Part shown: positions 42,394 to 54,397 of the stretch, one piece after another | How positions within the stretch are numbered: position 1 is the first letter of the stretch | How the letters are laid out: each line of letters starts with the position of its first letter | NCBI GenBank assembly: GCA_018303925.1 | Contig: JAGVXF010000010.1 | Location: forward strand, 1 to 62,824 | Source: Candidatus Pacearchaeota archaeon | Lineage (GTDB): Archaea > Nanobdellota > Nanobdellia > Pacearchaeales > GW2011-AR1 | Length of the DNA stretch: 62,824 bases | Direction: 5' to 3' | Made by a program: the position numbers and the translations under genes | The notes under the pieces: model-generated | Databases searched by the model: none | Told to the model about the DNA's origin: nothing | Seen by the model: only the letters and a program-made list of their open reading frames with translations

Positions 42394-44894
42394 TGACGGA
42401 TGAAAATTTAAATAAACCGCTGAAAAAATTAACAAACCTTAATATGAATATTAATCAATTGAAAGTCATTAAGGACAAATACCTTAAAGATTCTCCTACA
42501 GTGGAAGACTGGATAAGAGCAATTTGCCACAGCATTGCACTCTCTGAGATTCTTCATTCTGGAAAAGTAAGCGATGAAGAAATCTTTCGCGGAATTAACC
42601 ATGAAATCATTTCATATGATTCAATGGGAAAAACGGGAAAAATGTATTTACTTCATAAGGGGCTTGAGGATCATAATGAAAGAAAGAAAAATTTTAATAA
42701 ATTCATACAAAACCTGGAAGGAATAAATAAAAAATATCCCGAACTAATAAAAGAAACAGAAGAGAAATTTTACAATCTTTTATCAAGTTTTAATTTTTTG
42801 CCGAATTCCCCCACCTTAATGAATGCGGGAAGGGAACTTCAGCAGTTGTCGGCATGCTTTGTTTTACCTGTGGGTGATTCAATTGAAGAAATTTATGAAT
42901 CTTTGAAAAATATGGCTTTAGTTCACAAGAGCGGAGGAGGAACCGGGTTCTCATTTTCAAATTTGAGGCCCGCAAAAGATGTTGTGATTTCAACAAAAGG
43001 AATTTCTTCAGGCCCTCTTTCATTCATGCAGATTTTTGATAAGTCTACGGAAGTTGTCAAGCAGGGAGGTACAAGAAGAGGAGCAAATATGGGTATTCTT
43101 CATTACACGCATCCCGATATACTCAAGTTTATTGACATGAAAAAAACGCCGGGGGTTATGGAGAATTTTAATGTTTCTGTTACAATAGATGAAAGGTTCA
43201 TGAATGCAGTTAAAAATAACAAGGAATATGAATTAATTAATCCAAGAAGCCATGAGATTGCTGGAAAAATTAATGCAAAAGATGTCTGGGATAAACTCGT
43301 CAGAGGAGCCTGGGAGACAGGAGACCCCGGGATAATAATTATTGACAGAATAAACAATACAGGAAGTAATGCGACACCTCACCTTGGGCAAATTGAATCA
43401 ACGAATCCATGCGGTGAACAGCCTCTTTTGCCGTATGAGCCCTGTAATCTTGGCTCAATAAATCTTTCAAATTTTGTTGATGAGAACAAAAAAAATTTTG
43501 ACTATGAAAAACTAATTGAGACTGTAAAACTTTCGACAAGATTTCTTGATGATGTTATAGATGTAAATTGCTATCCTATCCCGAAAATTGAAGAAATCGC
43601 AAAAAAAACAAGAAGAATTGGTCTTGGGGTTATGGGATGGGCGGAAGCACTTGTTAAATTGAAAATTCCATACAATTCTCCTGAAGCCCTTCTTAAAGCT
43701 GAAGAATTAATGAAAGTGATAAATGAAACGTGCCTTGAGTATTCAAACGAGCTTGCAAAAACCCGGGGAGTTTTTCCTGCTTTTAAAGGAAGTGTTTATG
43801 ACAAAGAAGGTCCTTACTTTAGGAATTACGAAACTTATCCCAGACATTCAGCAAGAACAACAATTGCACCAACGGGGACAATTGCAATTACTGCGGGTCT
43901 GCAAGGGTCGGGAATTGAGCCGTTTTTTGCAGTTGCTTATGTGAGATATAATGCTGCCGGAATCGACGCTTTAAAAAAAGGAGAAACTCCTTCTGGGAAA
44001 GATACCTTTTTTGAAGTAAATCCACTTTTTGAAAAAATCGCCAGAGAAAACAATTATTTTGGTCTTAAAAAAGAAGACCTTTATATAAAAGTTAATGACA
44101 ATCACAAATCCTTATTGGGAATAAAAGAAATTCCTGAAAAAATTCAAAAATTGTTTTTAACTTCACACGATCTAAACCCAAGGGAGCACGTTTTGATGCA
44201 GTGCTCCTTTCAAAAATATACAGACAATGCAGTATCAAAGACTGTCAATTTAAGAAATGAAGCAACTGTTGAAGATGTTGACGAAGTTTACAGGCTTGCT
44301 TACGAAAACGGCGCGAAAGGTGTTACGATCTACAGGGATGGGAGTAAGCAATTTCAGATTCTAAACATTAATGAAAAGGGTAAAAAAGAAGTAAAAAAAG
44401 ATTTGCCCGAGTTTGCTGACTATTACCCGCTCGAAACAGGCCAGGGTCCGATTCATATACATATAAATTACAATGAAGAAAGAATTTCAAAGATTTTTGC
44501 AAATTTGTCCCCTATCGGAACTGAAATTTCAGGAATGGCAACGTCCCTCGCAATTGTTCTTTCAAAATATTTTGAGCTTGGCGGAGACCCTGTGAGAATT
44601 TTAAAGCATCTTAATTCTATAAAGTCAGAAAAGCCTTACGGCTTTGGAAAAAACAGAGTTGATTCAGTTCCACATGCTTTTTCAATAGCAATAAGAAATC
44701 ACCTGATAAAAACAGGAAAATTAAAATCCATAGACAATGGAAATGGTTTTTTATATGCCAACGGAGAAGTTGCAGAAATTGATAAAAATGTGAAGACTCT
44801 TTATTGCTCTAAATGTTTTAGCTCCAACGTCGGAATGATTTCAGGATGCACAGAGCCAACATGCTTTGACTGCGGGTATAGTAAATGCAGTTGA
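42393..44894 (+). CDS. nrdJ: Class II (adenosylcobalamin-dependent) ribonucleotide reductase
   Basis: NPCGEQPLLPYEPCNLGSINL active-site region, 833 aa, C-terminal Cys-rich tail CSKC...CTEPTCFDCGYSKC. Confidence 0.95.
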   Translation: MTDENLNKPLKKLTNLNMNINQLKVIKDKYLKDSPTVEDWIRAICHSIALSEILHSGKVSDEEIFRGINHEIISYDSMGKTGKMYLLHKGLEDHNERKKNFNKFIQNLEGINKKYPELIKETEEKFYNLLSSFNFLPNSPTLMNAGRELQQLSACFVLPVGDSIEEIYESLKNMALVHKSGGGTGFSFSNLRPAKDVVISTKGISSGPLSFMQIFDKSTEVVKQGGTRRGANMGILHYTHPDILKFIDMKKTPGVMENFNVSVTIDERFMNAVKNNKEYELINPRSHEIAGKINAKDVWDKLVRGAWETGDPGIIIIDRINNTGSNATPHLGQIESTNPCGEQPLLPYEPCNLGSINLSNFVDENKKNFDYEKLIETVKLSTRFLDDVIDVNCYPIPKIEEIAKKTRRIGLGVMGWAEALVKLKIPYNSPEALLKAEELMKVINETCLEYSNELAKTRGVFPAFKGSVYDKEGPYFRNYETYPRHSARTTIAPTGTIAITAGLQGSGIEPFFAVAYVRYNAAGIDALKKGETPSGKDTFFEVNPLFEKIARENNYFGLKKEDLYIKVNDNHKSLLGIKEIPEKIQKLFLTSHDLNPREHVLMQCSFQKYTDNAVSKTVNLRNEATVEDVDEVYRLAYENGAKGVTIYRDGSKQFQILNINEKGKKEVKKDLPEFADYYPLETGQGPIHIHINYNEERISKIFANLSPIGTEISGMATSLAIVLSKYFELGGDPVRILKHLNSIKSEKPYGFGKNRVDSVPHAFSIAIRNHLIKTGKLKSIDNGNGFLYANGEVAEIDKNVKTLYCSKCFSSNVGMISGCTEPTCFDCGYSKCS

Positions 44895-45008
44895 ACATCG
44901 CAATTAAGAGACCTGAAAGGCACAAGGCGAAGCACTCGTGAGTTTTTTCTGCAAGAAAAAATACTGAAGCGAAGCGTAGGTATAGTATGACGCAGGAATT
45001 TGTTTAGG
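44890..45008 (+). repeat. Degenerate attC-like site A (good left arm, poor right arm)
   Basis: GTTGAAC-ATCGCAATTAAGAG overlaps the nrdJ TGA and matches the left arms of sites D and F. The only candidate right end is GGAATTT-GTTTAGG. The interior holds two GCGAAGC motifs and a TTTTTTCT-GCA-AGAAAAAA hairpin. Confidence 0.35.
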
Positions 45009-45037
45009 TTTTTACTTATCAAGAAAGATATTTCACA

Positions 45038-45358
45038 CTATCTACTAACTTTTTTATCGATAAATATAGCAATGATATAGATAATAACTAAATTGATAAG
45101 AAACAATAATATTGAGAAATTAGCTCCGAATACCATATCATCTATTATATAAGTTGGTGTAAAGAAAGCGGGAAATCCAATTCCTAATTGTGAATTAAAA
45201 CAATTTGCAGAACTGGTTACACACCTTAGCATTATTGCAAAAGGTAATCCACTTAAGAATTATTCAAGAATGAAATTAATTATTGTTAATGCTAATAGAC
45301 TTAGGAATGAGTATGTAATCTTATTTTTATTCGGTTTAATTAATTCTTTCCAGTTCAT
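45038..45358 (-). pseudogene. Small membrane-protein ORF interrupted by an in-frame TAA (45260-45262)
   Basis: MNWKELIKPNKNKITYSFLSLLALTIINFILE-TAA-FLSGLPFAIMLRCV... is in one frame. The track only lists the distal 64 codons. Confidence 0.35.
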
Positions 45359-45450
45359 CTATACAAAAATATCCAATTACTTATTAATATTGATCGGTAA
45401 TTTCAATCTAAGTAAAAAAACCGTTAAGAATAAATTCTGAGTAATATTGT

Positions 45451-45554
45451 TTATAACGTCAGGGATATACGAAGTTTTTCTGGAGCGAAGCGGAAGAAAA
45501 ATTTGAGCGAAGCTCGAGTGGCAGAGCGAAGCGAAAGTCTGCAAGACGTTCCCA
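45451..45554 (+). repeat. Weak attC-like site B
   Basis: TTATAACGTCAGG...CTGCAAGACGTTCCC, where AACGTC and GACGTT are complementary. The interior carries three GCGAAGC motifs. The core boxes fit the RYYYAAC/GTTRRRY consensus poorly. Confidence 0.3.
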
Positions 45555-45597
45555 AAATCAGAATGATTTTGAGTTCAAAAAAGTGCGATACAATAAA

Positions 45598-45605
45598 TTT
45601 ATATA
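45598..45605 (+). promoter_or_regulatory. TATA box for ORF 45628
   Basis: TTTATATA lies 23 nt upstream of the ATG (leaderless-type spacing). Confidence 0.5.
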
Positions 45606-45627
45606 ATTCTTTAGAATTATCCTTTTT

Positions 45628-46137
45628 ATGGTAGAAATTGTTTTTCAAAGAAAGTATAAAGTAGATAGAGATTCTTTTTCCGAAGAAATAAGAACAAAAT
45701 TTAGTTTTGCTAATGAATATTTTGAAGTTTTGTTAAGTGAAACAGAAGGAGAATCGAAAAATACAGACAGTTTCATTCTAAAAATAATAAAAAGACAAAA
45801 CTTCAAAGAAGAATATACTAAGTTAAATGAAAAAGAAAAGGAATTTGCAAGAGATTTAATTTATACAATTATACAATTAAATCCAAAATTAATTGAAAAG
45901 AAATTTGTCCTGAATGCTCTTTCTAATGAAGAAGCAAAAGGGAAGAAAGCAATTATGAGTTCATTAGAATTGATTGACAAATTTCTTGAAGAAAAAGAAA
46001 AAAATAAAAATAATAAACAAATTCCTTTTCTTGAATCTCAAAACAAATTTTTTTGGATAATAACTGCGGTTGGAAAAAGAATCGTTTCAGCAAATTCTGA
46101 TTATATAGAAAAAAACAATTTCGTAAAAATACTCTAA
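45628..46137 (+). CDS. Hypothetical cassette protein
   Basis: 169-codon ORF, followed 20 nt later by attC-like site C. Confidence 0.45.
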   Translation: MVEIVFQRKYKVDRDSFSEEIRTKFSFANEYFEVLLSETEGESKNTDSFILKIIKRQNFKEEYTKLNEKEKEFARDLIYTIIQLNPKLIEKKFVLNALSNEEAKGKKAIMSSLELIDKFLEEKEKNKNNKQIPFLESQNKFFWIITAVGKRIVSANSDYIEKNNFVKIL

Positions 46138-46156
46138 GAGCACTTTTTTGAATTTC

Positions 46157-46246
46157 ATTTAACATCAGGATTATGAGAAGTTCGCCGTAGGCGAATTTAG
46201 GTGTAGCGAGGTGCAACCGAGCGAAACCGTTAAATCGCTGTTAGTT
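46157..46246 (+). repeat. attC-like site C
   Basis: ATTTAAC-ATCAGGATTATGAG...CCGTTAAATCGCT-GTTAGTT. The arms pair over about 10 bp with bulges on the left arm. Central TTCGCC-GTA-GGCGAA hairpin. Confidence 0.6.
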
Positions 46247-46251
46247 GCCCA

Positions 46252-46300
46252 CGAATACTTGGAGTGGTTGATTTTTAGTGCAACGATGCCGAAGGCAAAA
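46252..46300 (+). repeat. 49-nt conserved block, copy 1 (direct repeat of 50199-50247)
   Basis: CGAATACTTGGAGTGGTTGATTTTTAGTGCAACGATGCCGAAGGCAAAA; 47 of 49 positions are identical to copy 2. Confidence 0.9.
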
Positions 46301-46405
46301 TTTTAGAGTTAAAGCGAACTCTGGGATGGTGGGAACGCCAGAAATTTTTATAATATTTCAGATTGTCGCCGTCGTTTTCGTAAGTTGGGGGGCAGTAGTT
46401 TTTTG

Positions 46406-46428
46406 CTTCTTTTTTTCTAAAAAAGAAG
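46406..46428. repeat. T/A palindrome CTTCTTTTTT-TCT-AAAAAAGAAG followed by a G-run (block 2, copy 1)
   Basis: Perfect 10-bp arms. Related copies lie at 50303-50323 and 52289-52310, and an inverted degenerate copy at about 49817-49845. Confidence 0.85.
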
Positions 46429-46474
46429 AATTTTTGAGGGGGTTTCGGTCGTCACTATATAATGGGCCAAAAGA

Positions 46475-46482
46475 TTTAAATA
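46475..46482 (+). promoter_or_regulatory. TATA box for the RHH-methyltransferase operon
   Basis: The context CCAAAAGATTTAAATA is conserved with 50347-50363. Confidence 0.5.
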
Positions 46483-46526
46483 TAATGCTCATTTATTTAC
46501 ATTTGTATTCAAATGAGGGAAATAAA

Positions 46527-46667
46527 ATGGTTCAAAAAAATGTGACTCTAAGTCTTGATGAAGACACTTACGAAAAATATAGAGAATTTTGTAAGAAAAA
46601 TGCTGTTGCCTTATCAAGAAGTATAGAAGTATTCATGGAAGAAAAAACAAAAAGGGGGGAAAAATGA
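46527..46667 (+). CDS. Ribbon-helix-helix (CopG/controller-like) protein
   Basis: MVQKNVTLSLDEDTYEKYREFCKKNAVALSRSIEVFMEE fits a beta-strand plus two-helix RHH pattern. It overlaps the methyltransferase start. The upstream part of track ORF 46278-46667 is repeat DNA. Confidence 0.55.
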   Translation: MVQKNVTLSLDEDTYEKYREFCKKNAVALSRSIEVFMEEKTKRGEK

Positions 46668-48265
46668 GCCAAGAACTTTTATCAGTAGGTCAGGCATCTC
46701 AATGGGCGAGTGATTATTTAGACAGACCCGTGACTACTTCCAATATTAGTTATTTAATCCAGTACGCAAAAATTAAGAAATATCTTGATGAAGAAAAGAA
46801 AATAAAAGTCAATCTAAATGAATTAAAAGAATATTATGATGAAAATTTAGTAAAAAAACAAGAGTCATGGAAAAGCCAATTAGGGAAAGATTTAAACTGG
46901 GCATTATCTTTCTCGCATTTAAGAGAATCTGATACGACAAAACACGTTCATAGACTACACCCCTATAAAGGAAAGTTTATACCTCAACTTGTAGAATATT
47001 TCTTGGATTCTCATCTAAACACTTTTAAGAAAAAGGTCTTTTTTAAAGAAGGTAATATAATTCTTGACCCATTTATGGGAAGCGGAACAACGCTCGTTCA
47101 ATCATCCGAGATAGGTTTACATTCCATTGGGATAGATGTTTCTGATTTTAATTGTTTAATTTCCAAAGTTAAAATTGAAAAATATGATTTAGTTAGATTG
47201 GATAGAAAAGCAAGAGACATTTGTTTTAAAACAAGAGAATTTAGCCAAAAAGTATTTGATGATTCATTTGATGAACAATTAAAAGAAAAATTAAACGAAT
47301 TTAATAAAAAATATTTTCCTAATCCTGAGTTTAAGAGTAATGTTTGGAAAGGTATAATTAGAAACGAAGAACAATATGGGGAAGAAAAGTTAAAGCAGTT
47401 TCTAAAGGAAAATGAAGAATTTTTTAAAAAGAATGGAACAAAAGACAAATCTAACTTATTAAGTGAAAAAGAGATGAATAATTTTCTCAATAAGTGGTTT
47501 TCAAGAAGAGTAAGACAAGAATTATTTTATTATATAAAACTTTTAAGGGAAATTGGGGATGAAGACTTAAAAAATGTTCTAAGAATTATTTTAAGTAGAA
47601 CTGCTCGTTCGTGTAGGGCTACAACCCACTCGGATTTAGCGACATTAACAGAACCTCAAAATGGACCATATTATTGTAGAAAACACAAGAAATTATGCAC
47701 CCCGATAAACTCTATTGTTAAACACTTAATAAGATACACTTATGACACAATAAACAGATTAAATGAGTTTTCTAAATTAAAAAAAAGTGTATTTAGTAAT
47801 GTTATTCATGGAGATTCAAGAGAAGTAGATATTTTTGGAGAAATCAAAACGCAAAATCCTGAATTTTACAAGTTTTTAGTAAATAAAAAAATAGATGGAG
47901 TTTTTACTTCTCCGCCTTATGTTGGTCAAATAGATTACCATGAACAACACGCTTATGCTTATGAGCTTTTTGATATTGCAAGAAAAGATGATAAAGAAAT
48001 AGGCCCTTTATTCAACGGACAAGGACAGAAAGCAAGGGAGGAATATGTTAAAGGGATAAGCAAAGTTTTCATAAATATAAGTAAATTTGTAAAAGATGAT
48101 GGAGACTTTTTTGTTGTTGCAAATGATAAATATAATCTTTATCCTATAATTGCTGAAAAAAGCGGATTAAAAATAGTAGAACAATTTAAAAGACCTGTTC
48201 TAAACCGAACAGAGCGAGATAGACAACCTTATGCAGAGATTATATTTCATATGAGAAAAAAGTAA
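46664..48265 (+). CDS. Type II DNA methyltransferase (N4-C or N6-A, SPPY type; motif I precedes motif IV)
   Basis: HRLHPYKGKFIPQL and LDPFMGSGTT (motif I) lie near aa 95-155. VFTSPPYVGQIDY (motif IV) lies near aa 415. Confidence 0.85.
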   Translation: MSQELLSVGQASQWASDYLDRPVTTSNISYLIQYAKIKKYLDEEKKIKVNLNELKEYYDENLVKKQESWKSQLGKDLNWALSFSHLRESDTTKHVHRLHPYKGKFIPQLVEYFLDSHLNTFKKKVFFKEGNIILDPFMGSGTTLVQSSEIGLHSIGIDVSDFNCLISKVKIEKYDLVRLDRKARDICFKTREFSQKVFDDSFDEQLKEKLNEFNKKYFPNPEFKSNVWKGIIRNEEQYGEEKLKQFLKENEEFFKKNGTKDKSNLLSEKEMNNFLNKWFSRRVRQELFYYIKLLREIGDEDLKNVLRIILSRTARSCRATTHSDLATLTEPQNGPYYCRKHKKLCTPINSIVKHLIRYTYDTINRLNEFSKLKKSVFSNVIHGDSREVDIFGEIKTQNPEFYKFLVNKKIDGVFTSPPYVGQIDYHEQHAYAYELFDIARKDDKEIGPLFNGQGQKAREEYVKGISKVFINISKFVKDDGDFFVVANDKYNLYPIIAEKSGLKIVEQFKRPVLNRTERDRQPYAEIIFHMRKK

Positions 48266-48266
48266 T

Positions 48267-48980
48267 TTATTTTTCCATCCTTTCTAGTGTTATTTCTGGG
48301 AGTCCAAATTTATCAGCTAATAAAATATAAAATCCTTCTGTTAAAACATTTAATTCATTTATTTCCATCATGAATTTGACTAAGGGCATCTCTCTAGGGT
48401 TTGTATCGAATATATCGGAACACAACTTTAACTTTCCACCTTGACCATGTTCCCAAAAGAAAGTATAATGTGTAAGGGAATTCCTTGTTCCAGAATCAAA
48501 ATAATTTAGATATTTGTTTGTAGAATATTTTTGTTTTAGGAAATTGATAGCGTTTCCAATACCATGGATTTCTTTATGATTCTTCCCAAATTTTTTCCAA
48601 TCAATAAAGAATAAAAAATAAATTTTTAATCTCTCTAAAAAAGTAACATATGTGTTTACCAAGATAGAATGATAATGTTCTCCCAATCTAAAAGTGTCTC
48701 CAATATTAAATGCTTTTTTTAAGCATTCTAATTTTTCTTCAGTTTCTTTTTTATTGCTTGAATTAAATACTGAACCAAAATCTTTAGATAATTTTAAAGC
48801 CATATTACAACTTTTTGTAATATTCTGTAATCTTGTTACCTGTTCTTCTGAGAAATTTCTTAACAAAAGTCCATCTGAATCAAGATTATTAATTAGTTCC
48901 TTAATTGAGATTTCATAATCTTCAAAAAATTTTCTTAATCCGCTTCCCATCCCAGATTTAAAATTTTCGATGCTTGTCAT
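48267..48980 (-). CDS. Hypothetical helical protein in the R-M module with an Rx4H motif (possible HEPN-like)
   Basis: GTRNSLTHYTFFW contains R-x4-H. It is co-oriented and contiguous with the putative endonuclease gene. Confidence 0.35.
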   Translation of the reverse strand: MTSIENFKSGMGSGLRKFFEDYEISIKELINNLDSDGLLLRNFSEEQVTRLQNITKSCNMALKLSKDFGSVFNSSNKKETEEKLECLKKAFNIGDTFRLGEHYHSILVNTYVTFLERLKIYFLFFIDWKKFGKNHKEIHGIGNAINFLKQKYSTNKYLNYFDSGTRNSLTHYTFFWEHGQGGKLKLCSDIFDTNPREMPLVKFMMEINELNVLTEGFYILLADKFGLPEITLERMEK

Positions 48981-49754
48981 TTAAACATCCATTTTCTTTT
49001 CAGCAACTTCTTTTATCTTATTCTGTATTTTTTCCTTAAACTCTTTACCAACTTCATCAAAGATTTCTAAAACTTCTTCATAAGTTCCTTTTCCACCAAG
49101 AAGTTCCCAGAATTTTTCAGCAACATAAAGCTCTTTTTCTTCATCCAAAAATCCTTGCATTGTAAATCTGTTATATGGTTCTGGATGATAAGGATTATAA
49201 GGAATAGCCAAAATTGTATTTACTTTCTTTTTTCTGAGTGCAACCCATTCCAATAACTTCTGCTTTGATTTAACAAAAACATCTATATTGGGTTTTGCTG
49301 TTTTTATCTCAATATAATATTCATCATTGCCTTTCTTTAAGAATAAATCGGCTCTGACTTTTATTTTTCTTCCACCATTTTTGTTACATTGCAAAATATC
49401 TTTTATTTCTTTTTCTTTATTTGCAGTTCTTGTTCCATTCTTTATTTCTTGAAGAATCTGGGAAATTACAGAGTTCTCTTCATTTGTAATTTCTCCCTCA
49501 ACATCATAACCAGTTTTTACTTCATCGTAATGAGCTAATGCGACAATTTCAGAAATTTTCTCATAAACTGACATTCCCAATGTTGTAGCTAATGAATGTA
49601 TGAAAGAATAAGAAGCTACTTTTTCGGAATCTTGCATAAGTTTAACCAAAAAAGGCATAGAGGTTGTTTCTCTTACATATTTGGACAACTTGTCATTTAG
49701 TTTTGACCTTAGCAAATTCTTGATTTCGTTAATTTGATTTTCATTGAGTGTCAT
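48981..49754 (-). CDS. Putative type II restriction endonuclease (PD-(D/E)XK; possibly TdeIII-like)
   Basis: VRADLFLKKGNDEYYIEIKTAKPN gives a D...E-x-K catalytic pattern. It is convergent with the methyltransferase. Confidence 0.5.
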   Translation of the reverse strand: MTLNENQINEIKNLLRSKLNDKLSKYVRETTSMPFLVKLMQDSEKVASYSFIHSLATTLGMSVYEKISEIVALAHYDEVKTGYDVEGEITNEENSVISQILQEIKNGTRTANKEKEIKDILQCNKNGGRKIKVRADLFLKKGNDEYYIEIKTAKPNIDVFVKSKQKLLEWVALRKKKVNTILAIPYNPYHPEPYNRFTMQGFLDEEKELYVAEKFWELLGGKGTYEEVLEIFDEVGKEFKEKIQNKIKEVAEKKMDV

Positions 49755-49865
49755 CTTAATAAGAAAGATTGCCTTTTATTTATAAATGCTATTATTTACG
49801 TAACCGAAACCCCCTCTTTCTTTAATAAAAAACAAGAAAAATATTTGGGTGCAACGAAGTGAAAC

Positions 49866-49926
49866 CTCTTATCGTTTGTTAGGCGAAATTTTAATTTCGT
49901 GAGTTCTCTCGTTGGTTCGATAAGAG
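49866..49926 (+). repeat. Family-2 hairpin, copy a (GTTAGGC in the loop)
   Basis: CTCTTATCG-ttt-GTTAGGC...(33 nt)...CGATAAGAG with a perfect 9-bp stem and an inner GAAAT/ATTTC hairpin. Confidence 0.6.
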
Positions 49927-50065
49927 AAGTATTTTTCTGTTTTTACAATCGAGCAAACCACAGTTTGCGAGACTATCTGTCGCGTGAGCGACTTCGAGCC
50001 GATCCCCTAATTTTTCTGAAAGAAAAATATTCGTAATCGTTTTCGAGCCCACCGAGTAATATGTC

Positions 50066-50193
50066 GCCTAACATCGCGATTAAGCGACCCGTAGGGCTCG
50101 GGCGGAGTGAAACGACCCCGAGTGTTTTTGCGAAGCAAAAATATGGGTGGAAAAACCTGCAAGGTTTTGGAACCGCTTAATCTGCTGTTAGTT
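50066..50193 (+). repeat. attC-like site D
   Basis: GCCTAAC-ATCGCG-ATTAAGCG...CGCTTAAT-CTGCT-GTTAGTT. The centre holds four small hairpins, including TTTTTGCGAAGCAAAAA and AAAACC-TGCA-AGGTTTT. Confidence 0.7.
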
Positions 50194-50198
50194 TCTCC

Positions 50199-50247
50199 CG
50201 AATACTTGGAGGGATTGATTTTTAGTGCAACGATGCCGAAGGCAAAA
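50199..50247 (+). repeat. 49-nt conserved block, copy 2
   Basis: CGAATACTTGGAGGGATTGATTTTTAGTGCAACGATGCCGAAGGCAAAA. Confidence 0.9.
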
Positions 50248-50302
50248 AATCAAAGTCGTCGTGTCTATTGTTTTTTATGGGGGTTTACGCCGCCGTTTTT
50301 TG

Positions 50303-50323
50303 CTTCTTTTTTTAAAAAAGAAG
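50303..50323. repeat. T/A palindrome CTTCTTTTTT-T-AAAAAAGAAG plus G-run (block 2, copy 2)
   Basis: Perfect 10-bp arms, followed by GTGGGG. Confidence 0.85.
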
Positions 50324-50355
50324 AGTGGGGATTTCCGTTTAATGACCAAAAGATA

Positions 50356-50363
50356 TTTAAATA
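50356..50363 (+). promoter_or_regulatory. TATA box for the ArsR operon
   Basis: TTTAAATA lies 24 nt upstream of the ATG at 50387. Confidence 0.5.
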
Positions 50364-50386
50364 TTAGCTTATTCTAATACAAGAAT

Positions 50387-50701
50387 ATGAAAGAACTATA
50401 TGAAATTCATGCTGAAATGTGCAAAGTATTTTCAAATTCAACAAGGTTGGAAATATTGAATTTATTGAGAGATAAAGAATTATCAGTAACAGAATTGATA
50501 AAAAAGACAAGATTAAGTCAAGCCAATATCTCCCAGCATTTGTCAATTATGAAATCCAAAGGAATTGTTGTCTCAAATAGAAAGGGCAAGAATATCTATT
50601 ACAGACTCACAAATCCAAAAATAATCAAAGCATTTGATATAATAAGAGATGTTTTGGCTGAAAAATTAAAGAAAAATGGGAAATATGTTAAAAACTTATG
50701 A
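50387..50701 (+). CDS. ArsR/SmtB-family HTH regulator
   Basis: FSNSTRLEILNLL...ELSVTELIKKTRLSQANISQHLSIMKSKGIV winged-HTH pattern. Confidence 0.85.
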   Translation: MKELYEIHAEMCKVFSNSTRLEILNLLRDKELSVTELIKKTRLSQANISQHLSIMKSKGIVVSNRKGKNIYYRLTNPKIIKAFDIIRDVLAEKLKKNGKYVKNL

Positions 50702-50710
50702 GGTGCTAGA

Positions 50711-51274
50711 ATGAAAAAGATATTTACAATCTTGATTTTCGGTATGTTGTTATTAAGTGTAAGTTTAGTTTTTGCTCACGAACATGATTTTAATGAAACA
50801 AAACAAATTATAAATTCTGGAATTAGTTGCGATAAACTCACAGATGAACAGCTTGAATCCATTGGTGATTATTATATGGAGCAAATGCACCCTGGCGAAG
50901 CCCATAAGATGATGGATCAAATGATGGGTGGAGAAGGTTCTGAAAGTTTAAGACAAGTACAGATTAACATGGCAAAACGGCTTTATTGTAATGAAGATAT
51001 CGGAGGAATGATGGGTGGTGGCATGATGAATATGATGATGGGAAATAATATGATGGGAAACTATCCAGCATATTATGGTTATAATAATTTTTGGAATGTA
51101 CTTTGGATGGTTTTTTTAATAGGAGCAATTGCGCTGATAGTTTGGCTGATTTATAAATTTACAAAAAAAGGGAAAGAATCTGAAACTCCAATTAATATTT
51201 TACAGAAAAGATATGCTAAAGGAGAAATAAACAAAAAACAATTTGAGGAAATGAAAAAGGGGTTAAGGAAGTGA
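50711..51274 (+). CDS. Secreted Met/Gly-rich protein with a TM anchor and a C-terminal SHOCT domain
   Basis: Signal-like N-terminus, MMGGGMMNMMMGNNMMG tract, one TM segment, then ILQKRYAKGEINKKQFEEMKKGL (SHOCT-like). Confidence 0.6.
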   Translation: MKKIFTILIFGMLLLSVSLVFAHEHDFNETKQIINSGISCDKLTDEQLESIGDYYMEQMHPGEAHKMMDQMMGGEGSESLRQVQINMAKRLYCNEDIGGMMGGGMMNMMMGNNMMGNYPAYYGYNNFWNVLWMVFLIGAIALIVWLIYKFTKKGKESETPINILQKRYAKGEINKKQFEEMKKGLRK

Positions 51275-51582
51275 GGCTCATGGAAAAAGATAAAAGCACA
51301 TTGGTATGGATTTTCATTGCTGTAATTGTTGTTCTTTTTTTCATAGGAAGTTTTGGAATGGGCAGTTATGGTATGATAGGTTTCGGAATGGGATTTGGAT
51401 TTATTTTCATGTTGCTTTTCTGGGGTCTTATTATATGGCTTATAGTCACTTTAATCAATACGAGCCAATCCAATAAAAGTGAGCCAGATTCATTAACAAT
51501 CCTAAAAAGAAGATATGCTTCTGGAGAAATCACAAAGAGGCAATATGAAGAAATGAGGAAGGAATTAAACATCGGAATTTAA
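51271..51582 (+). CDS. Small membrane protein with a C-terminal SHOCT domain
   Basis: Two TM segments and ILKRRYASGEITKRQYEEMRKEL. The last codons lie inside attC-like site E. Confidence 0.6.
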   Translation: MRLMEKDKSTLVWIFIAVIVVLFFIGSFGMGSYGMIGFGMGFGFIFMLLFWGLIIWLIVTLINTSQSNKSEPDSLTILKRRYASGEITKRQYEEMRKELNIGI

Positions 51583-51652
51583 CGAAGTCGCCAAAGGCGA
51601 TTTGGGTGGAGAAGCCTGCAAGGTTTCGGAACCGTTAAATTTCCTGTTAGTT
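51564..51652 (+). repeat. attC-like site E
   Basis: ATTAAAC-ATCGG-AATTTAACG...CGTTAAATT-TCCT-GTTAGTT with a 9-bp perfect inner stem. The centre has TCGCC-AAA-GGCGA and the CCTGCAAGG hairpin shared with site D. Confidence 0.7.
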
Positions 51653-51719
51653 GCGTCTTTTCGTAGAAAAGACCTAGGGATAGTGCAACGATTTTTGCGA
51701 AGCAAAAAATCCCGAAGAG

Positions 51720-51734
51720 TTTAGAATTACCACA
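51720..51734. repeat. Left copy of a 15-bp perfect inverted repeat bracketing ORF 51735-52010
   Basis: TTTAGAATTACCACA. The reverse complement lies at 52046-52060. Confidence 0.9.
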
Positions 51735-52010
51735 CTATCGTTTTTTATATTTCAATTTTAATGCTAAAATTAGAATTATTGCACAAGATACAAAATTTAA
51801 TCCTGTAACAATTTCCAACAATAAATCAGAGATTACTAAAAGTGCATAAAGAAAAGTAATAAGACTACAAAAAGTCCAAATGATGTAAGAATTGATATTT
51901 GCACTTGCTATTTTTTTCATTAAATCTCTTATTGTTGGAAAGTATCCTATCGTTGCAATAATTCCTGTACTCGCATAAAGAAAGGCAATAATTGTTAATA
52001 TGAATTCCAT
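51735..52010 (-). CDS. SemiSWEET/PQ-loop-like 3-TM protein
   Basis: 91 aa with three hydrophobic helices. GYFPTIRDLMKK sits at the position of the PQ motif. Resembles the 20013-20369 product in layout. Confidence 0.5.
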   Translation of the reverse strand: MEFILTIIAFLYASTGIIATIGYFPTIRDLMKKIASANINSYIIWTFCSLITFLYALLVISDLLLEIVTGLNFVSCAIILILALKLKYKKR

Positions 52011-52045
52011 AATACATTTATTAAAATTGAAATGAATATAAAGTT

Positions 52046-52060
52046 TGTGGTAATTCTAAA
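52046..52060. repeat. Right copy of the 15-bp perfect inverted repeat
   Basis: TGTGGTAATTCTAAA is the reverse complement of 51720-51734. Confidence 0.9.
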
Positions 52061-52064
52061 TTGC

Positions 52065-52201
52065 AACTAACATCGCGATTAAGAGAAGTTGTTTGCAGTA
52101 ACTTTAATCTATAAATAGGCAAACAATTTGGGCTAATTTCTGGTTTTCACTAAGAAAATTTGCGAAGCAAAAAGAAATTACCTCTTAATCTGCTGTTGCT
52201 T
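52065..52201 (+). repeat. attC-like site F
   Basis: AACTAAC-ATCGCG-ATTAAGAG...CTCTTAAT-CTGCT-GTTGCTT. The arms are as in site D, with a compensatory C:G to A:T change. The centre differs (TTGTTTGC/GCAAACAA hairpin and TTTGCGAAGCAAA). Confidence 0.7.
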
Positions 52202-52288
52202 GACCGAACGAAGTGAGGCACGAGTGGAGCAAGAAGCGACCTCGTGAGTTTTAATTTTTCTTTCAGGGTGGGGCCCGCCCGCTTTTTG

Positions 52289-52310
52289 TTTCTTTTTTTC
52301 TAAAAAGAAA
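52289..52310. repeat. T/A palindrome TTTCTTTTT-TTCT-AAAAAGAAA plus G-run (block 2, copy 3)
   Basis: Perfect 9-bp arms, followed by ATGGGGGAG. Confidence 0.8.
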
Positions 52311-52323
52311 ATGGGGGAGTTTT

Positions 52324-53007
52324 TTATCTTCCAATTTTTTGTAAAAATTCTTCTCTTGTAATTTCTTTAAGAGTCTTCAAATCAAGATAATAATTCTTTG
52401 GTTCAACTTCAACTTGCATTGACAAAGAATTTATTTTACCGCAATCACATTCTATAACATAAAAATTAGGTGTGTCAGAAGTGTAGCTCATTAAGTTACC
52501 CCCACATTTAAGAGAACATATTTCGTTTGATTCTGAATTAGTAAGAACACTTGTCTTAGGATAACCTTTTTGATTAGCCAATTCTATAAATGAATTTTCT
52601 GCCTTAATGGTTTGAGAATTTTCAACAATACCATTAATCTTATTTGAAATTGAGGGATAGAATTGTAAGGATAGAACGATAATAATTAATAATACTATGA
52701 AAGATAACCAAAAGAATCCTTTTCTATTCTGTATTTTATATTTGTTTTTATGATAATCATCTTGAGATAAGGATTTAATTGACCAATAAATTTTCTTTCC
52801 ATTAAACATACAGATTAGCAAAATAAGAGGAATTGATATCATCAAAGCAGTAGCAGAATTATGATTAAATCCCAATGTCCTAATGTAATTATATGATAAA
52901 TATAATAAAAAGATTAAAAATCCAACAACGAAAAGATAAACAATCATCTTGTATTTTTCTTCTTGTTCTTCCCTTGTAATAAGTCTAACTTTAATAGGTT
53001 CTGCCAT
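52324..53007 (-). CDS. Hypothetical multi-TM protein with a Cys-containing extracytoplasmic C-terminal domain
   Basis: Four hydrophobic segments, then a soluble domain with CSLKCGG...CDCG. Confidence 0.5.
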   Translation of the reverse strand: MAEPIKVRLITREEQEEKYKMIVYLFVVGFLIFLLYLSYNYIRTLGFNHNSATALMISIPLILLICMFNGKKIYWSIKSLSQDDYHKNKYKIQNRKGFFWLSFIVLLIIIVLSLQFYPSISNKINGIVENSQTIKAENSFIELANQKGYPKTSVLTNSESNEICSLKCGGNLMSYTSDTPNFYVIECDCGKINSLSMQVEVEPKNYYLDLKTLKEITREEFLQKIGR

Positions 53008-53059
53008 AAAATAAATAGAAAAGCCAAACTTAATAAATATATGCTTCTAATTTGATTTT

Positions 53060-53269
53060 ATGGAACTAAAAAAACAAAAAGAAATTAGACAACACAAAGC
53101 AAATTTAGGCATAGGTGTTGCTGGAGGATTTGTCGCTGGTGGGAGTTTGCTTGCTTATCAAATATTAATACCATATGGTTTGGGTTATGCTCTTCTGGGA
53201 GCGGTTTTTGTTGCTTTAGTTATCTATAAAATGTCAGTTAAGATGATAGAGAAAAATGTTAATCGCTAA
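53060..53269 (+). CDS. Small 2-TM membrane protein
   Basis: 69 codons, Gly/Ala-rich helices. Confidence 0.4.
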   Translation: MELKKQKEIRQHKANLGIGVAGGFVAGGSLLAYQILIPYGLGYALLGAVFVALVIYKMSVKMIEKNVNR

Positions 53270-53315
53270 AACTCCCCCTAAATAAATAGAAAAATTTGGG
53301 AGAGCGACAGCGAAC

Positions 53316-53379
53316 CTTTTATCCATTGTTATGCAAAGTGCAAAGCATTTTGTTGTTTTTCTCGTCGGTCGGATAAAAG
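53316..53379 (+). repeat. Family-2 hairpin, copy b (GTTATGC in the loop)
   Basis: CTTTTATCC-att-GTTATGC...GGATAAAAG with a 9-bp stem. Two positions differ from copy a and both are compensated. Confidence 0.6.
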
Positions 53380-53496
53380 AAGTTTTTCTCTGAAACGAAG
53401 TTTCAGCTATCTGTCCGAAGGACTGCGGGCAATCTCTCACTATCTTTGGGCGGGAAAGAAAGAAAAATTAAAATTTGGGCGAAGCCAAGCAACATA

Positions 53497-53526
53497 AGAT
53501 TATCAATAGTTTATTATTGATAATCT
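53497..53526. other. Perfect 12-6-12 palindrome; candidate recombinase core site (dif/attI-like) or operator
   Basis: AGATTATCAATA-GTTTAT-TATTGATAATCT. It ends 25 nt upstream of the recombinase TATA box. Confidence 0.55.
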
Positions 53527-53551
53527 CCTAATTGGGCATGGAAACAATAAA

Positions 53552-53559: not shown

Positions 53560-53581
53560 ATCGTCTTTCAATCGAATTTTA

Positions 53582-54397
53582 ATGAATGGACTGAGATTAA
53601 AATTAAAAAGAGAACTTGAAATAAGAAATTTTTCTAATCAGACTGTTAAAGCGTATCTTTATTCGGTTGATAAATTTGTGGAATTTTCTAAAGGAAAAGG
53701 ACTAAATGAAGATTCAATTAAAGACTATATTCAAAAAGGTCTTGAAAACAAAAATCCAACGAGTGTTAGAAGGGATTTATTTGCAATTAAATTTTTCTTT
53801 GAAAAGGTATTAAAGCAAAAGGTAAACATCCCAAACCCAAAGAAAAATAAGACTCTCCCGGAGATTCTCACAATTGAAGAAATAAAAAAATTAATCGAAT
53901 CTGCAAATAATATCAAACACCGATTAATAATCAAACTTCTTTATGGATGCGGATTAAGAGTTTCTGAGATTGTAAACCTTAAAGTAAATGATTTGAACTT
54001 TGTTGAAGAATTAATTAAAATAAATCTTGCAAAAGGAAAAAAAGACAGATTTGTTAAGATACCTTCATCAATAAAAGATGAACTTGAAAGTTATTTAAAA
54101 TTAAATAAGCATAATACTTTATTTCCTTCAAATAGAGGTGGAAAATTAACAAAAGATACTATTCAAAAAATTGTTCAAAACTCTGCTAAAAGAGCAGGAA
54201 TTAAAAAAAGAGTTTATCCACATTTATTGAGGCATAGTTTTGCAACGCATCTTCTTGAACAGGGGACGGATTTAAGAATGATTCAAAAATTGCTTGGTCA
54301 TTCTGATATAAAAACCACTCAAATTTATACTCAAATTTCCCAAGCTTCAATAAAAAATATAAAAAGTCCGCTTGATAATTTACAATATGGCAAGTAA
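53582..54397 (+). CDS. xerA: Xer-type tyrosine recombinase (XerA/XerC/XerD-like; no IntI-specific insertion)
   Basis: N-terminal SAM-like core-binding domain, GLRVSEI (box I Arg), KGKKDR, HLLRHSFATHLL and LLGHSDIKTTQIYTQ (His and Tyr). Only about 40 aa lie between KGKKDR and HLLRH. Confidence 0.9.
   Translation: MNGLRLKLKRELEIRNFSNQTVKAYLYSVDKFVEFSKGKGLNEDSIKDYIQKGLENKNPTSVRRDLFAIKFFFEKVLKQKVNIPNPKKNKTLPEILTIEEIKKLIESANNIKHRLIIKLLYGCGLRVSEIVNLKVNDLNFVEELIKINLAKGKKDRFVKIPSSIKDELESYLKLNKHNTLFPSNRGGKLTKDTIQKIVQNSAKRAGIKKRVYPHLLRHSFATHLLEQGTDLRMIQKLLGHSDIKTTQIYTQISQASIKNIKSPLDNLQYGK

Follow-up and report, generated by a model that had tools for sequence, protein, structure and literature searches.

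One-strand mini-hairpins in attC-like repeats of a probable integron-like cassette array beside a XerA-type recombinase gene in DPANN archaea

A total of 62,824 nt of archaeal DNA (the window, i.e. the whole stretch analysed) was examined, in which an array of 8.7 kb was found upstream of a gene encoding a XerA-type tyrosine recombinase (Table 1). The array contained attC-like units (A) together with B, C and D modules, and between the units lay cargo genes, cassette-like in content, for a restriction-modification pair, ArsR, SHOCT proteins and small membrane proteins. The cargo varied by genome, while the modules were common to genomes. The array ended at terminal site P, which lay 55 nt before the start codon of the recombinase gene and consisted of AACAT, 1 nt and a perfect 12-6-12 palindrome (AGATTATCAATA GTTTAT TATTGATAATCT).

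Table 1. Features of the array and background copies of GCGAAGC (window coordinates)
Feature	Position	Strand	Details
GCGAAGC in dph2 (Diphthamide_syn) fragment	17519..17525	+	background; sole copy outside array
Degenerate attC-like unit, distal array end	44892..45030	+	GCGAAGC at 44927, 44969; cctGAAagg, ttttttctGCAagaaaaaa; 5′ end TGAACATCGCAATTAAGAG overlaps ribonucleotide reductase stop codon; not detected by covariance model R1
Degenerate attC-like unit (TATAACGTCAGGGATATACGAAGT...)	45450..45562	+	GCGAAGC at 45485, 45507, 45526; gtctGCAagac
attC-like unit (A)	46159..46245	+	ttcgccGTAggcgaa, ggtGCAacc; R1 45.8 bits, E 8e-7
B module	46248..46312	+	covarying stem around A-GTGCAAC-GA and tgccGAAggca
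C module	46385..46452	+	T-rich/A-rich hairpin between G-rich flanks; possibly insulator or terminator
C-like module, inverted	49795..49845	-	upstream of minus-strand restriction endonuclease gene; read directly
D module, diverged copy	49846..50067	+	gtcgcGTGAgcgac, atttttctGAAagaaaaat; 3′ end ...GTCGCCTAAC directly precedes next unit
attC-like unit (A), branched tip	50068..50192	+	tip: cccGTAggg, tttttgcGAAgcaaaaa (GCGAAGC at 50130), aaaacctGCAaggtttt; R1 E 0.037
B module	50193..50258	+	tgccGAAggca
C module	50275..50342	+
GCGAAGC in CDS 50711-51274	50895..50901	+	background, outside modules
attC-like unit (A)	51566..51651	+	top-scoring in window, R1 69.3 bits, E 2e-12; 5′ end overlaps stop codon of SHOCT ORF 51271-51582
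B module	51652..51716	+	gtcttttcGTAgaaaagac, tttttgcGAAgcaaaaa (GCGAAGC at 51697)
attC-like unit (A)	52067..52200	+	tttgcGAAgcaaa (GCGAAGC at 52162); R1 E 1.5e-3
B-variant, then C module	52201..52325	+	52201-52262 and 52263-52325
D module	53270..53490	+	ctgaaacGAAgtttcag, gtccGAAggac, ggcGAAgcc (GCGAAGC at 53479); 3′ end ...GCCAAGC, then AACAT
Terminal site P (attI-like)	53491..53526	+	AACAT, 1 nt, palindrome
XerA-type tyrosine recombinase	53582..54397	+	271 aa; no IntI-specific (I2) insertion

The original prediction was of a pile-up of GCGAAGC on one strand of the array, and every position it gave was exact. A total of 10 copies were found on the + strand of the array and none on the - strand, 0.175 being expected per strand, and the maximum reached in 2000 dinucleotide shuffles was 3. 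As predicted, nine of them were intercassette, falling in the repeat modules (1.77 kb; 0.22 expected), and the tenth was inside a CDS, while the single copy seen beyond the array was confirmed within a 110-aa ORF, taken as a dph2 fragment because its match covered only the first 61 of the 302 Diphthamide_syn positions. The window thus had 11 copies, in comparison with 2.07 expected on both strands (11 was reached in 0 of 100 shuffles); the claimed lack of GCTTCGC in the array extended to the entire window, where the - strand had no GCGAAGC. Moreover, the GAA-loop hairpins listed with it were all present in the array, namely TGCC-GAA-GGCA (twice), GTCC-GAA-GGAC, CTGAAAC-GAA-GTTTCAG, TTTTTCT-GAA-AGAAAAA and three copies of TTT(TT)GCGAAGCAAA(AA), and the strand bias reached this class too. 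Considering stems of at least 2 bp, the array had 18 C-GAA-G hairpins on the + strand and none on the - strand, as well as C-GTA-G (3 and 0), C-AAA-G (6 and 0) and T-GCA-A (13 and 1), while C-GAA-G was evenly distributed in the other 54 kb (5 and 6). Furthermore, 29 of the 40 G(N)NA mini-hairpins on the + strand of the array were inside repeat modules, compared to one of eight on the - strand.

On the + strand, each unit presented, in this order, an R helix (yTAACA/TGTTAr), a T-C bulge in the 5′ arm, a stem, AAGT, one or more hairpins, ATTTGGG and a further hairpin. The R helix (AACA/TGTT) was invariant and the bulge conserved, while the stem of 11-12 bp covaried and the branched tip was capped by G(N)NA loops. 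Among 13 units, 93% of the cells were paired, with changes on both sides in 8 of 11 stem pairs, and 0 of 500 shuffles scored as high; among 142 distinct units, 96% were paired, with 282 compensatory cells. Judged by this covariation, the unit structure is under selection. The steadiest cap positions were the two hairpins within the unit, and the GAA loop was kept while hairpin stems were swapped wholesale.

The B and D modules, which lie outside the attC-like stem, were also full of mini-hairpins (12 of the 29 module mini-hairpins of the window). These count against a pure attC-folding model, which needs none there, and they would fit mini-hairpins that served as priming or nuclease-protection signals of an excised single-stranded cassette circle instead of folding determinants, given that such motifs are nuclease-resistant and occur at ssDNA priming sites (the G4 complementary-strand origin and ssiA). 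However, the cargo ORFs tested included no gene for a primase or Rep, and the steadiest caps are those inside the unit, so that this role is very unlikely.

The same arrangement was found in about 20 DPANN genomes and 120 metagenome contigs, the latter being an independent set retrieved by the 5′ motif of the unit only; the motif tracked the attC-like repeats in both, this being the test in other loci that was proposed with the original prediction. Across 25 DPANN loci, counting only stems of 4 bp or more, C-GNA-G hairpins were distributed 67 (+) to 5 (-) in the 102 kb upstream of the homologous recombinase, C-GAA-G being the commonest triloop hairpin there, and 8 to 8 in the 175 kb downstream. 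No comparable C-GNA-G bias was seen in about 43 bacterial Xer/IntI loci. In the 120 metagenome contigs, C-GNA-G counts were 453 vs. 58 and GCGAAGC counts 178 vs. 14, and none of them carried the 5′ motif of the unit on both strands. Regarding R1, 29 of its 31 matches in the first 81 sources were upstream of the gene on the recombinase-sense strand, none being found in the bacterial loci of that set, and the only matches downstream of a recombinase were two weak, overlapping ones at one spot in locus L014. Within the 62.8 kb window R1 had no match outside the array, and on 100 metagenome contigs it gave 166 matches of uniform orientation per contig, with the exception of one contig. The recombinase was downstream of and co-oriented with the units in 13 of 13 metagenome contigs, including recombinases only 36-47% identical, and linkage and orientation were kept in every close relative with upstream sequence. 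The flanking genes were not syntenic across relatives, hence the recombinase and the array behave as a single unit.

Miniature transposable elements (MITE-like or with IS200/IS605-type ends) gathered in an intergenic hotspot and unrelated to the recombinase would likewise be short, structured, repeated and shared by genomes with differing flanking genes, and IS200/IS605 ends are themselves strand-specific ssDNA hairpins. Nevertheless, no HUH transposase was found among the array ORFs tested, the modules kept one orientation per locus and lay only upstream of the recombinase, save for the two L014 matches, and cargo genes were set between units in cassette fashion, all of which makes this origin highly improbable.

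The nature of the folded strand was approached through loop types and stem composition. In the upstream arrays, neither GNRA (28/26) nor TNCG tetraloops (4/8) showed a comparable array-specific bias, and unit stems were almost purely Watson-Crick, with G·T in only about 2% of stem cells. On the + strand of the units, G·T exceeded A·C (54 vs. 20, p about 1e-4), and the + strand fold was the stabler in 26 of 29 units, even under parameters ignoring the GNA bonus. The d(GCGAAGC) hairpin melts at 76.5 °C (Tm), in contrast to 39 °C for its RNA analogue r(GCGAAAGC) (PMC13037366). Loop types, Watson-Crick stems and the G·T excess point to folding of the + strand as DNA. The one-strand bias and the G·T excess would be equally expected if the modules acted as + strand RNA (terminators, processing sites or small RNAs), the bias then marking the transcribed strand; the C modules are terminator-like, with T-runs beside a hairpin, and the unpaired conserved AAGT, ATTTGGG and AGTGCAACGA could be RNA-protein contacts. 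Against RNA stand the absence of any Rfam match to the sequence, even at a permissive threshold, the DNA-specific stability of C-GNA-G triloops, the unbiased tetraloops, the scarcity of G·T, the cargo genes beside units in both orientations, and a geometry fixed with respect to the recombinase gene with junctions at AACAT; RNA action is thus quite unlikely.

Read 5′ to 3′, the + strand presents the sites, the terminal AACAT with its palindrome and the recombinase gene in sense, just as reading the bottom strand of a bacterial integron in this direction ends with the integrase gene in its sense orientation; by this analogy, the + strand is equivalent to the bottom strand of integrons. The single-stranded, attC-type reading first proposed for the hairpins is therefore supported, as they cap covarying attC-like units on that strand. 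The units resemble bacterial attC sites in being imperfect palindromes whose conserved R box reads AAC...GTT, whose inner stem covaries and whose terminal structure is variable. In particular, the bottom-strand oligonucleotide of attCaadA7 (...GCC-GCGAAGC-GGC...) has the identical 7-mer at its tip and begins with TAAC, 6 nt and ATTAAG, as the units do. Tips of attC sites carry a 5′-GAA triplet in attCaadA1 and attCereA2 and are branched in VCR; IntI1 bound attCaadA1 less well once GAA had been changed to TTC, while in a conjugation assay the bottom-strand recombination of VCR changed only about 2-fold when its tip was replaced with GAA or TTC (PMC2727003), so the caps need not have a strong effect. 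Unlike bacterial attC, and against an attC-like reading, the units lack the canonical extrahelical bases of the 3′ arm, their sole asymmetry being the T-C bulge right after AACA in the 5′ arm, opposite to the arm holding those bases in canonical bottom strands. They also differ in the conserved AAGT and ATTTGGG junction motifs, in tips made of at least two hairpins with G(N)NA caps and in the extra conserved B, C and D modules, which make up a non-coding block of 270-500 nt. Moreover, cargo ORFs occurred on both strands (7 on + and 5 on -), unlike in typical integrons, which also tells against an integron-like reading.

Cassette junctions fell within the invariant AACAT, and canonical bottom strands are cut at AA|C. 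After one and the same D-module end plus AACAT came the terminal palindrome in the window and in L007 but the interior of a unit in L022, while another D end preceded a unit in the window and the palindrome in L016; furthermore, three contigs (L002, L005 and L011) ended exactly at AACAT. The recombinase passed the NCBIfam XerA equivalog cut-off, with its best score to archaeal XerA. It resembles IntI (VchIntIA, PDB 2A3V) as a tyrosine recombinase (142 bits) and in lying at the same place and in the same orientation with respect to the array, but in its 271 aa about 42 IntI residues (roughly 200-241, which is consistent with the position of the IntI-specific additional (I2) domain) have no counterpart. 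In the integron field, this domain is regarded as conferring single-strand recombination (PMC7790495), so its absence counts against the single-strand reading.

Archaeal integrons, with attC cassette arrays in Nanoarchaeota/DPANN among others, were described by Ghaly et al. 2022 (PMC9668308), and most of those arrays had no detectable IntI. Their IntIs bear the IntI-specific domain, as required by the pipeline, and the Nanoarchaeota attC tested was a 60-nt, bacterial-type site; the locus described here differs in its units, in its recombinase without that domain and in having a cis-linked Xer-type recombinase with a conserved terminal site. The same work listed genomes of Pacearchaeales and Woesearchaeales in which 3-14 attCs occurred but no IntI, and found that IntI1 recombines diverse archaeal attCs (PMC9668308). 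The array could hence be a CALIN served in trans by an IntI elsewhere or in another organism, its neighbour being a housekeeping XerA, as the equivalog score would allow, with a dif site and a meaningless linkage. Indeed, the terminal site has the dif architecture (inverted arms of 11-13 nt, 6-nt spacer) and could simply be dif. However, its arms were entirely unlike between genomes with 60-78% identical recombinases, and it adjoins the gene, whereas dif sites of archaea show high conservation and do not adjoin xerA. Also unlike XerA/dif, the site is preceded by the invariant AACAT of the cassette junctions and abutted by a structured-repeat array. Together with the linkage kept down to 36-47% identity amid non-syntenic flanks, and with units devoid of the extrahelical bases read by IntI, this makes the trans-served array unlikely.

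The arrangement is therefore probably best explained as an integron-like cassette array of DPANN archaea in which G(N)NA mini-hairpins cap the branched tips of attC-like sites, and the B and D modules, the sites being probably single-strand-folding. The likely role of the mini-hairpins would be to nucleate and stabilise the recombinogenic fold. When the + strand became single-stranded, the very stable d(C-GNA-G) caps would nucleate and lock the fold, making it stabler than that of the complement, whose loops are TNC, and helping it to withstand re-annealing or coating by single-strand-binding protein. The XerA-type recombinase, without the I2 helix that IntIs use to read extrahelical bases, would recognise the site in its folded form and carry out, at AACAT, a one-strand exchange between it and the terminal site. 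An integron-like system without I2 would be a variant of known integrons. In ss-IMEX of the CTX-phi type, too, a Xer recombinase without I2 acts on a folded ssDNA hairpin and exchanges a single strand at a chromosomal site, and Escudero et al. proposed such exploitation of Xer as a way in which integrons may have arisen; in contrast, the array has no phage genes and many cassettes in tandem, every one of which has a hairpin site of its own, and the hairpin is not obviously a mimic of the terminal palindrome. The mini-hairpins d(GCGNAGC)/d(GCGNNAGC) of ssDNA phage origins, ssiA and N4 promoters, all of which function in single-stranded form, are alike in motif and strand specificity; those are single origins or promoters, while dozens of mini-hairpins per locus occur here, within recombination-site-like repeats.

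To begin with, a search of both strands of the window returned 11 copies of GCGAAGC, all of them on the + strand and exactly where the original prediction had placed them, compared with 2.07 expected (none of 100 shuffles reached 11). Ten of these copies were found in the stretch of the predicted pile-up, while dinucleotide shuffles of the array gave 0.175 copies per strand (maximum of 3 in 2000), and the repeat modules alone (1.77 kb) held 9 copies against 0.22 expected. One copy does sit within a CDS, as had been noted, and the only copy outside the array was confirmed to lie in what remains of a diphthamide-synthesis gene (dph2 fragment of 110 aa). Moreover, the bias was wider than one 7-mer, as further hairpin types (stems of at least 2 bp) were also found preferentially on the + strand of the array. 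C-GAA-G appeared 18 times on the + strand and never on the - strand of the array (5 and 6 times in the other 54 kb, respectively), followed by T-GCA-A (13 and 1; 31 and 29), C-AAA-G (6 and 0; 23 and 21) and C-GTA-G (3 and 0; 2 and 2). The array hairpins correspond to the mini-hairpin DNA motif d(GCGNAGC)/d(GCGNNAGC), which comprises a G(N)NA loop, C-G closing and a short G/C stem (PMC13037366). Of these G(N)NA mini-hairpins, 29 of the 40 on the + strand of the array were inside modules, compared with 1 of the 8 on the - strand, and those within array ORFs stayed at background level (10 vs. 6). The cumulative GC skew of the window climbed throughout, and the local skew tracked the coding strand.

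The motif was also found to track the attC-like repeats in other loci, since both the bias and the units recurred upstream of homologous recombinase genes. In 25 DPANN loci, C-GNA-G hairpins with stems of at least 4 bp occurred 67 times on the recombinase strand and 5 times on the opposite one in the 102 kb upstream of the gene, while the 175 kb downstream showed 8 vs. 8. At least 120 metagenome contigs (593 kb), selected only by the 5' motif of the attC-like unit (module A), presented 453 C-GNA-G hairpins with stems of at least 3 bp on the unit strand and 58 on the opposite strand, the corresponding numbers for GCGAAGC being 178 and 14. Among the metagenome matches listed, no contig had the 5' motif on both strands, and the 13 contigs encoding the gene all carried the recombinase homologue downstream of the units and on the same strand. 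Furthermore, a covariance model of the A unit (R1), searched against both strands of 1.2 Mb, yielded 31 matches, of which 29 were upstream of the gene, on the recombinase strand and in DPANN loci, while none appeared in the bacterial loci. No units were found by R1 near distant recombinase homologues with 42-48% identity (loci L024, L028, L031 and L077). In the metagenome contigs listed, the model found 166 units in 100 contigs, with one orientation per contig except in L153, the only contig with units in both orientations, back to back, which may have arisen by inversion, consist of two arrays facing each other or reflect a chimera of the assembly. The C-GNA-G bias was absent in ~43 bacterial Xer/IntI loci. 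Cap bias as a general integron property was rejected, as none was found in the Vibrionaceae, Shewanella and Pseudomonas loci, which had been chosen by their IntI- or Xer-like gene and not by a cassette array. An artefact of chance or composition was ruled out by the shuffles, the downstream-flank controls and the bacterial controls. The hairpin enrichment is real, far above chance and conserved in many genomes.

On the + strand, the A unit had the order yTAACA - T(A)C - stem - AAGT - hairpin(s) - ATTTGGG - hairpin - stem' - TGTTAr, with variable tips and a total length of ~80-170 nt. Among 13 short units from nine genomes, 93% of the cells were paired and 8 of the 11 inner-stem pairs showed both-sided changes, and none of 500 shuffles or slid registers came near. 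The 142 distinct units from the metagenome contigs reached 96% pairing, with both-sided changes in 10 of the 11 inner-stem pairs and 282 compensatory cells, a score attained by none of 500 shuffles. AAC/GTT was essentially invariant in both sets, and AAGT was close to invariant. The helix was irregular at one point only, in the 5' arm, where T-C (or TAT) bulged out immediately 3' of AACA, with T in 138 and C in 113 of the 142 units, while at least 140 of them had no inserted base on the 3' arm. The first inner hairpin was capped by GAA, GGA, AAA or GTTA closed by a C-G pair, and the second mostly by GCA. In 29 units, the predicted terminal loops were G(N)NA in 33 of 73 cases, and many of the longer predicted loops had G first and A last within a C-G pair.

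Four independent lines identify the + strand as the equivalent of the integron bottom strand. Its 5'-to-3' order of sites, terminal site and sense recombinase is the canonical bottom-strand order, the junction (see below) would fall within the 5' AAC, the position of the bottom-strand cut, and G·T wobbles outnumbered A·C mismatches (54 vs. 20). By analogy, the bottom-strand oligonucleotide of the bacterial site attCaadA7 points to the same strand, having GCGAAGC at its tip (...GCC-GCGAAGC-GGC...) and a start, TAAC + 6 nt + ATTAAG, like that of the window units (TAAC-ATCGGG-ATTAAG). The position of the bulge would give the opposite strand call, as extrahelical bases are on the 3' arm of the bottom strand in canonical sites. 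It was treated as a real difference from the canonical attC and as genuine to this system, because the recombinase is without the helix that reads extrahelical bases. Among bacterial sites, 5'-GAA tips are present in attCaadA1 and attCereA2 and a branched tip in VCR, and the change from GAA to TTC in attCaadA1 reduced IntI1 binding (Bouvier et al., PMC2727003).

The folding strand is favoured to act as DNA rather than RNA by its C-GNA-G triloops, by GNRA and UNCG tetraloops being unbiased in the upstream arrays, and by A-unit stems that were almost wholly Watson-Crick and without an Rfam match. The melting temperature of d(GCGAAGC) is 76.5 C vs. 39 C for the RNA analogue r(GCGAAAGC) (PMC13037366). 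A known structured RNA was considered and rejected, as the matches to Rfam 15 at gathering score were tRNAs only and nothing meaningful appeared in the array at E-values up to 5; a weak, non-significant match to RsaF was located within module C. With the DNA parameters of ViennaRNA, the + strand was slightly favoured (-19.3 vs. -17.8 kcal/mol), these parameters being blind to the loop effect, as they give GAA and TTC loops equal energy and leave GCGAAGC unfolded. Judging from the loop types, the excess of G·T over A·C and the likeness to attCaadA7, the folded bottom strand would be recombined as ssDNA. The comparative evidence lends support to the original prediction, in which the strand-biased hairpins were read as sites that may act in single-stranded form as attC sites do.

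The array is bordered on one side by a ribonucleotide reductase gene, upstream of which is NrdR, and on the other by the recombinase gene (see table), and its distal boundary abuts core genes, because the reductase is a housekeeping-type gene. The cargo, comprising a DNA methyltransferase with a TdeIII-type restriction enzyme, an ArsR regulator, two SHOCT proteins and several small membrane or unknown ORFs, is of a kind typical of cassettes, while the mixed orientation of its ORFs (seven on the + and five on the - strand) is atypical of integrons. The methyltransferase (N6_N4 type) and the endonuclease form a complete type II restriction-modification system in one cassette-like interval of ~3.9 kb, which also has a small DUF6364-like ORF and an unknown 237-aa ORF in a convergent arrangement. 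The 5' ends of two units overlapped preceding stop codons; overlap with the ends of cassette ORFs is frequent in canonical attCs.

Besides A, three modules separate the cargo genes. Module B has a covarying stem around A-GTGCAAC-GA and a GAA-capped hairpin, module C is a T/A hairpin with G-rich flanks, and module D is ~220 nt long and ends immediately before the next AACAT. According to BLAST against the related loci, only the modules, and never the cargo, were common to genomes, always in one orientation upstream of the recombinase. Homologues of module D kept the scaffold and retained the loop while entire stems were exchanged. Thus, CTGAAAC-GAA-GTTTCAG, CTTTTGCC-GAA-GGCAAAAG and CTAAAAATT-GAA-AATTTTTAG were found at one position, and GTCC-GAA-GGAC, GTTGC-GAA-GCAAC and GTCGC-GTGA-GCGAC in another hairpin. 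The 5' part of module D resembled a circularly permuted A unit, with the order ATTTGGG, hairpin, CCTTTTATCC and TTGTTA, followed ~35 nt on by GGATAAAAG-AAGT pairing back to CCTTTTATCC; it could be what is left of two adjoining half-sites or a structure in its own right. The copies of module C, with a TTTTTT/AAAAAA hairpin, were located between the recombination-site block and the TATA-like box of the next gene, and this module may be a bidirectional terminator or insulator.

Coordinates of the features in the window and in related contigs
Feature	Sequence	Position	Strand
Array	window	44895-53581	
Stretch with ten GCGAAGC copies	window	44927-53485	+
GCGAAGC copy within a CDS	window	50895	+
GCGAAGC copy in dph2 fragment	window	17519	+
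Unit 5' end over stop codon of ribonucleotide reductase gene	window	44892-44894	
Unit 5' end over end of SHOCT ORF (51271-51582)	window	51566-51582	
Type II restriction-modification genes	window	46527-48265; 48267-49754	
Module C copies	window	46385-46452; 50275-50342; 52263-52325	
Module C copy, inverted	window	49795-49845	
Module D 5' part, permuted-A-like	window	53270-53400; 49846-49940	
Module D 5' part, permuted-A-like	L022	5164-5290	
AACAT of terminal site	window	53491-53495	
Palindrome of terminal site	window	53497-53526	
Recombinase gene	window	53582-54397	+
NYN-domain gene	window	54816-55421	
NYN-gene homologue as cargo	L014	4340-4894	
NYN-gene homologue as cargo	L022	5742-6247	-
A units in both orientations	L153	1505-1640; 1805-1901; 2963-3047	-; +; +
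tRNA, 117 nt	window	59991-60107	

At the terminal site (P, attI-like), a single base separated AACAT from a perfect 12-6-12 palindrome (AGATTATCAATA GTTTAT TATTGATAATCT), the end of which was 55 nt upstream of the start codon of the recombinase. The same arrangement, yTAACAT plus arms of 11-13 nt around 6 nt, was present upstream of the gene in ~20 loci, and in 17 of these loci 12 of the 13 arm positions covaried, only TATC..A and its mirror image being kept. Two inverted arms (of ~11 bp in dif) and a 6-nt spacer are also the architecture of dif, the site of Xer recombinases, so that the palindrome could be read as a plain dif. However, its arms vary among related genomes and it adjoins the recombinase gene, while in published archaeal cases dif is highly conserved among relatives and does not adjoin xerA, and the cassette junctions fall at AACAT and not in the spacer. 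The reading as a plain dif was less favoured and survives as part of a rival explanation. The junction itself was placed by homology breakpoints, which suggest that recombination would occur at AACAT. The sequence ...GGGCGAAGCCAAGCAACAT preceded the palindrome in the window and in L007 and the interior of an A unit in L022, while ...GAGCCCACCGAGTAATATGTCGCCTAACAT was followed by an A unit in the window and by the palindrome in L016. Furthermore, three contigs from different assemblies (L002, L005 and L011) stopped exactly at the first A of the terminal-site AACAT, the assembly-graph behaviour expected where one fixed site is joined to differing cassettes among the members of a population, which suggests population-level variation of the cassette beside the terminal site.

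The array-adjoining gene encodes a tyrosine recombinase of 271 aa, which matched the archaeal XerA model NF040815 (recomb_XerA_Arch) with 249.7 bits (curated cut-off of 220), while the integron-integrase models TIGR02249 and PRK15417 matched it in two pieces only. Its best solved relatives were XerA structures (4A8E and 5HXY), to which the alignments were continuous. In the alignment with the integron integrase VchIntIA (2A3V), ~42 residues of the latter, roughly 200-241, had no counterpart in the window recombinase, and this gap is where the IntI-specific additional domain (I2) is expected. No insertion at this position was found either in eleven further unit-linked recombinases (258-286 aa) from the metagenome contigs listed, some of which were only 36-47% identical. 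The close relatives of the recombinase (60-78% identity) all came from Woesearchaeota, Pacearchaeota or Nanoarchaeota MAGs, which, along with the dph2 fragment and the presumed intron-containing tRNA (see below), identifies the host as a DPANN archaeon. A second tyrosine recombinase was absent within 10 kb in every locus, and the loci shared no flank synteny of the kind that a fixed chromosomal site would give.

Regarding known systems, the array resembles integrons in having an adjoining tyrosine recombinase gene, which reads in sense on the same strand that is the bottom strand for the sites, and variable cargo separated by sites, the modules alone being common to genomes. Its units are like attC sites in their imperfect inverted repeats with an AAC/GTT core (R boxes), covarying L stem and variable terminal structure. 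On the other hand, IntI carries I2, which the window recombinase lacks, and canonical attC sites combine extrahelical bases in the R''-L'' arm with a central spacer left unpaired on both arms, a combination that the A units do not show. Based on sequence, the array thus appears to be integron-like, two defining features of integrons (the I2 domain and the extrahelical bases) being absent. Likeness to XerA/dif lies in the XerA-type recombinase. An IS200/IS605 origin is opposed by the confinement of the units upstream of the recombinase in one orientation, as such ends occur in dispersed copies, and no HUH (TnpA) transposase domain was found in the array ORFs scanned. The A unit is not the Nanoarchaeota attC tested by Ghaly et al., which is a short bacterial-type attC.

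Starting from the observed anatomy, statistics, covariation and geometry, we infer a mechanism of folding in vivo and of catalysis by the 271-aa recombinase. Once exposed, the + strand would fold into several hairpins, nucleated and stabilised by the G(N)NA caps, and this fold would be favoured in stability over the complementary fold, re-annealing and protein coating. The recombinase would then be presented with the AACA/TGTT helix, the T-C bulge and the long stem, and cassettes built as [unit][B][C][genes][D] would be inserted or excised by exchanging one strand, within AACAT, with the terminal site. A quantitative contribution of the caps is presumed, and when the tip of VCR was exchanged for GAA or TTC, a conjugation assay showed a change of only ~2-fold (PMC2727003). 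A caveat for a pure attC-folding model is that mini-hairpins also fill modules B and D, where such a model does not need them.

GAA tips on attC bottom strands (PMC2727003), archaeal integron arrays including DPANN orders, mostly without detectable IntI (PMC9668308), and the mini-hairpin DNA motif in ssDNA-acting elements (PMC13037366) were already known. In the literature searched, there was no description of the cis linkage of such arrays to an I2-less Xer-type recombinase, of the terminal AACAT-plus-palindrome site, of a unit architecture without extrahelical bases or of systematic strand-specific G(N)NA capping across composite modules of 270-500 nt. According to the current view, single-strand recombination of attC depends on the I2 helix of IntI docking the extrahelical bases, and IntI derives from an Xer-like ancestor with no known intermediates (PMC7790495). 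In contrast, the arrays described here form a large and environmentally widespread family of attC-like hairpin arrays of canonical integron geometry with an I2-less Xer-type recombinase and sites without extrahelical bases. It is a serious possibility, falling somewhat short of probable, that the DPANN arrays are a natural integron-like system with a XerA-type recombinase in which I2 was never acquired or was lost, and in which folding and strand choice are encoded in the DNA (caps, and the T-C bulge near the AAC crossover) instead of in extrahelical bases read by I2. If so, they would represent the missing Xer-like intermediate of integron evolution or an independent, convergent solution for single-strand cassette recombination, and many of the archaeal attC arrays described without an integrase would have their cognate recombinase identified. 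Should the recombinase act on these sites, I2 would be unnecessary for structure-specific cassette recombination, the IntI-less archaeal arrays would have a concrete candidate enzyme, and mini-hairpin caps, with a melting temperature near 76 C, would be DNA-encoded folding aids, a design principle useful for synthetic attC sites. The main interest is a candidate I2-independent cassette system run by a Xer-type enzyme, a claim directly testable with oligonucleotides and one small protein.

Finally, the recombinase gene of the window, like that of L018, was directly followed by an NYN-domain gene, while homologues of this gene were array cargo upstream of the recombinase in two other loci. Moreover, the 117-nt tRNA, identified by Rfam (57 bits) and missed by ARAGORN, is presumably an intron-containing archaeal tRNA.
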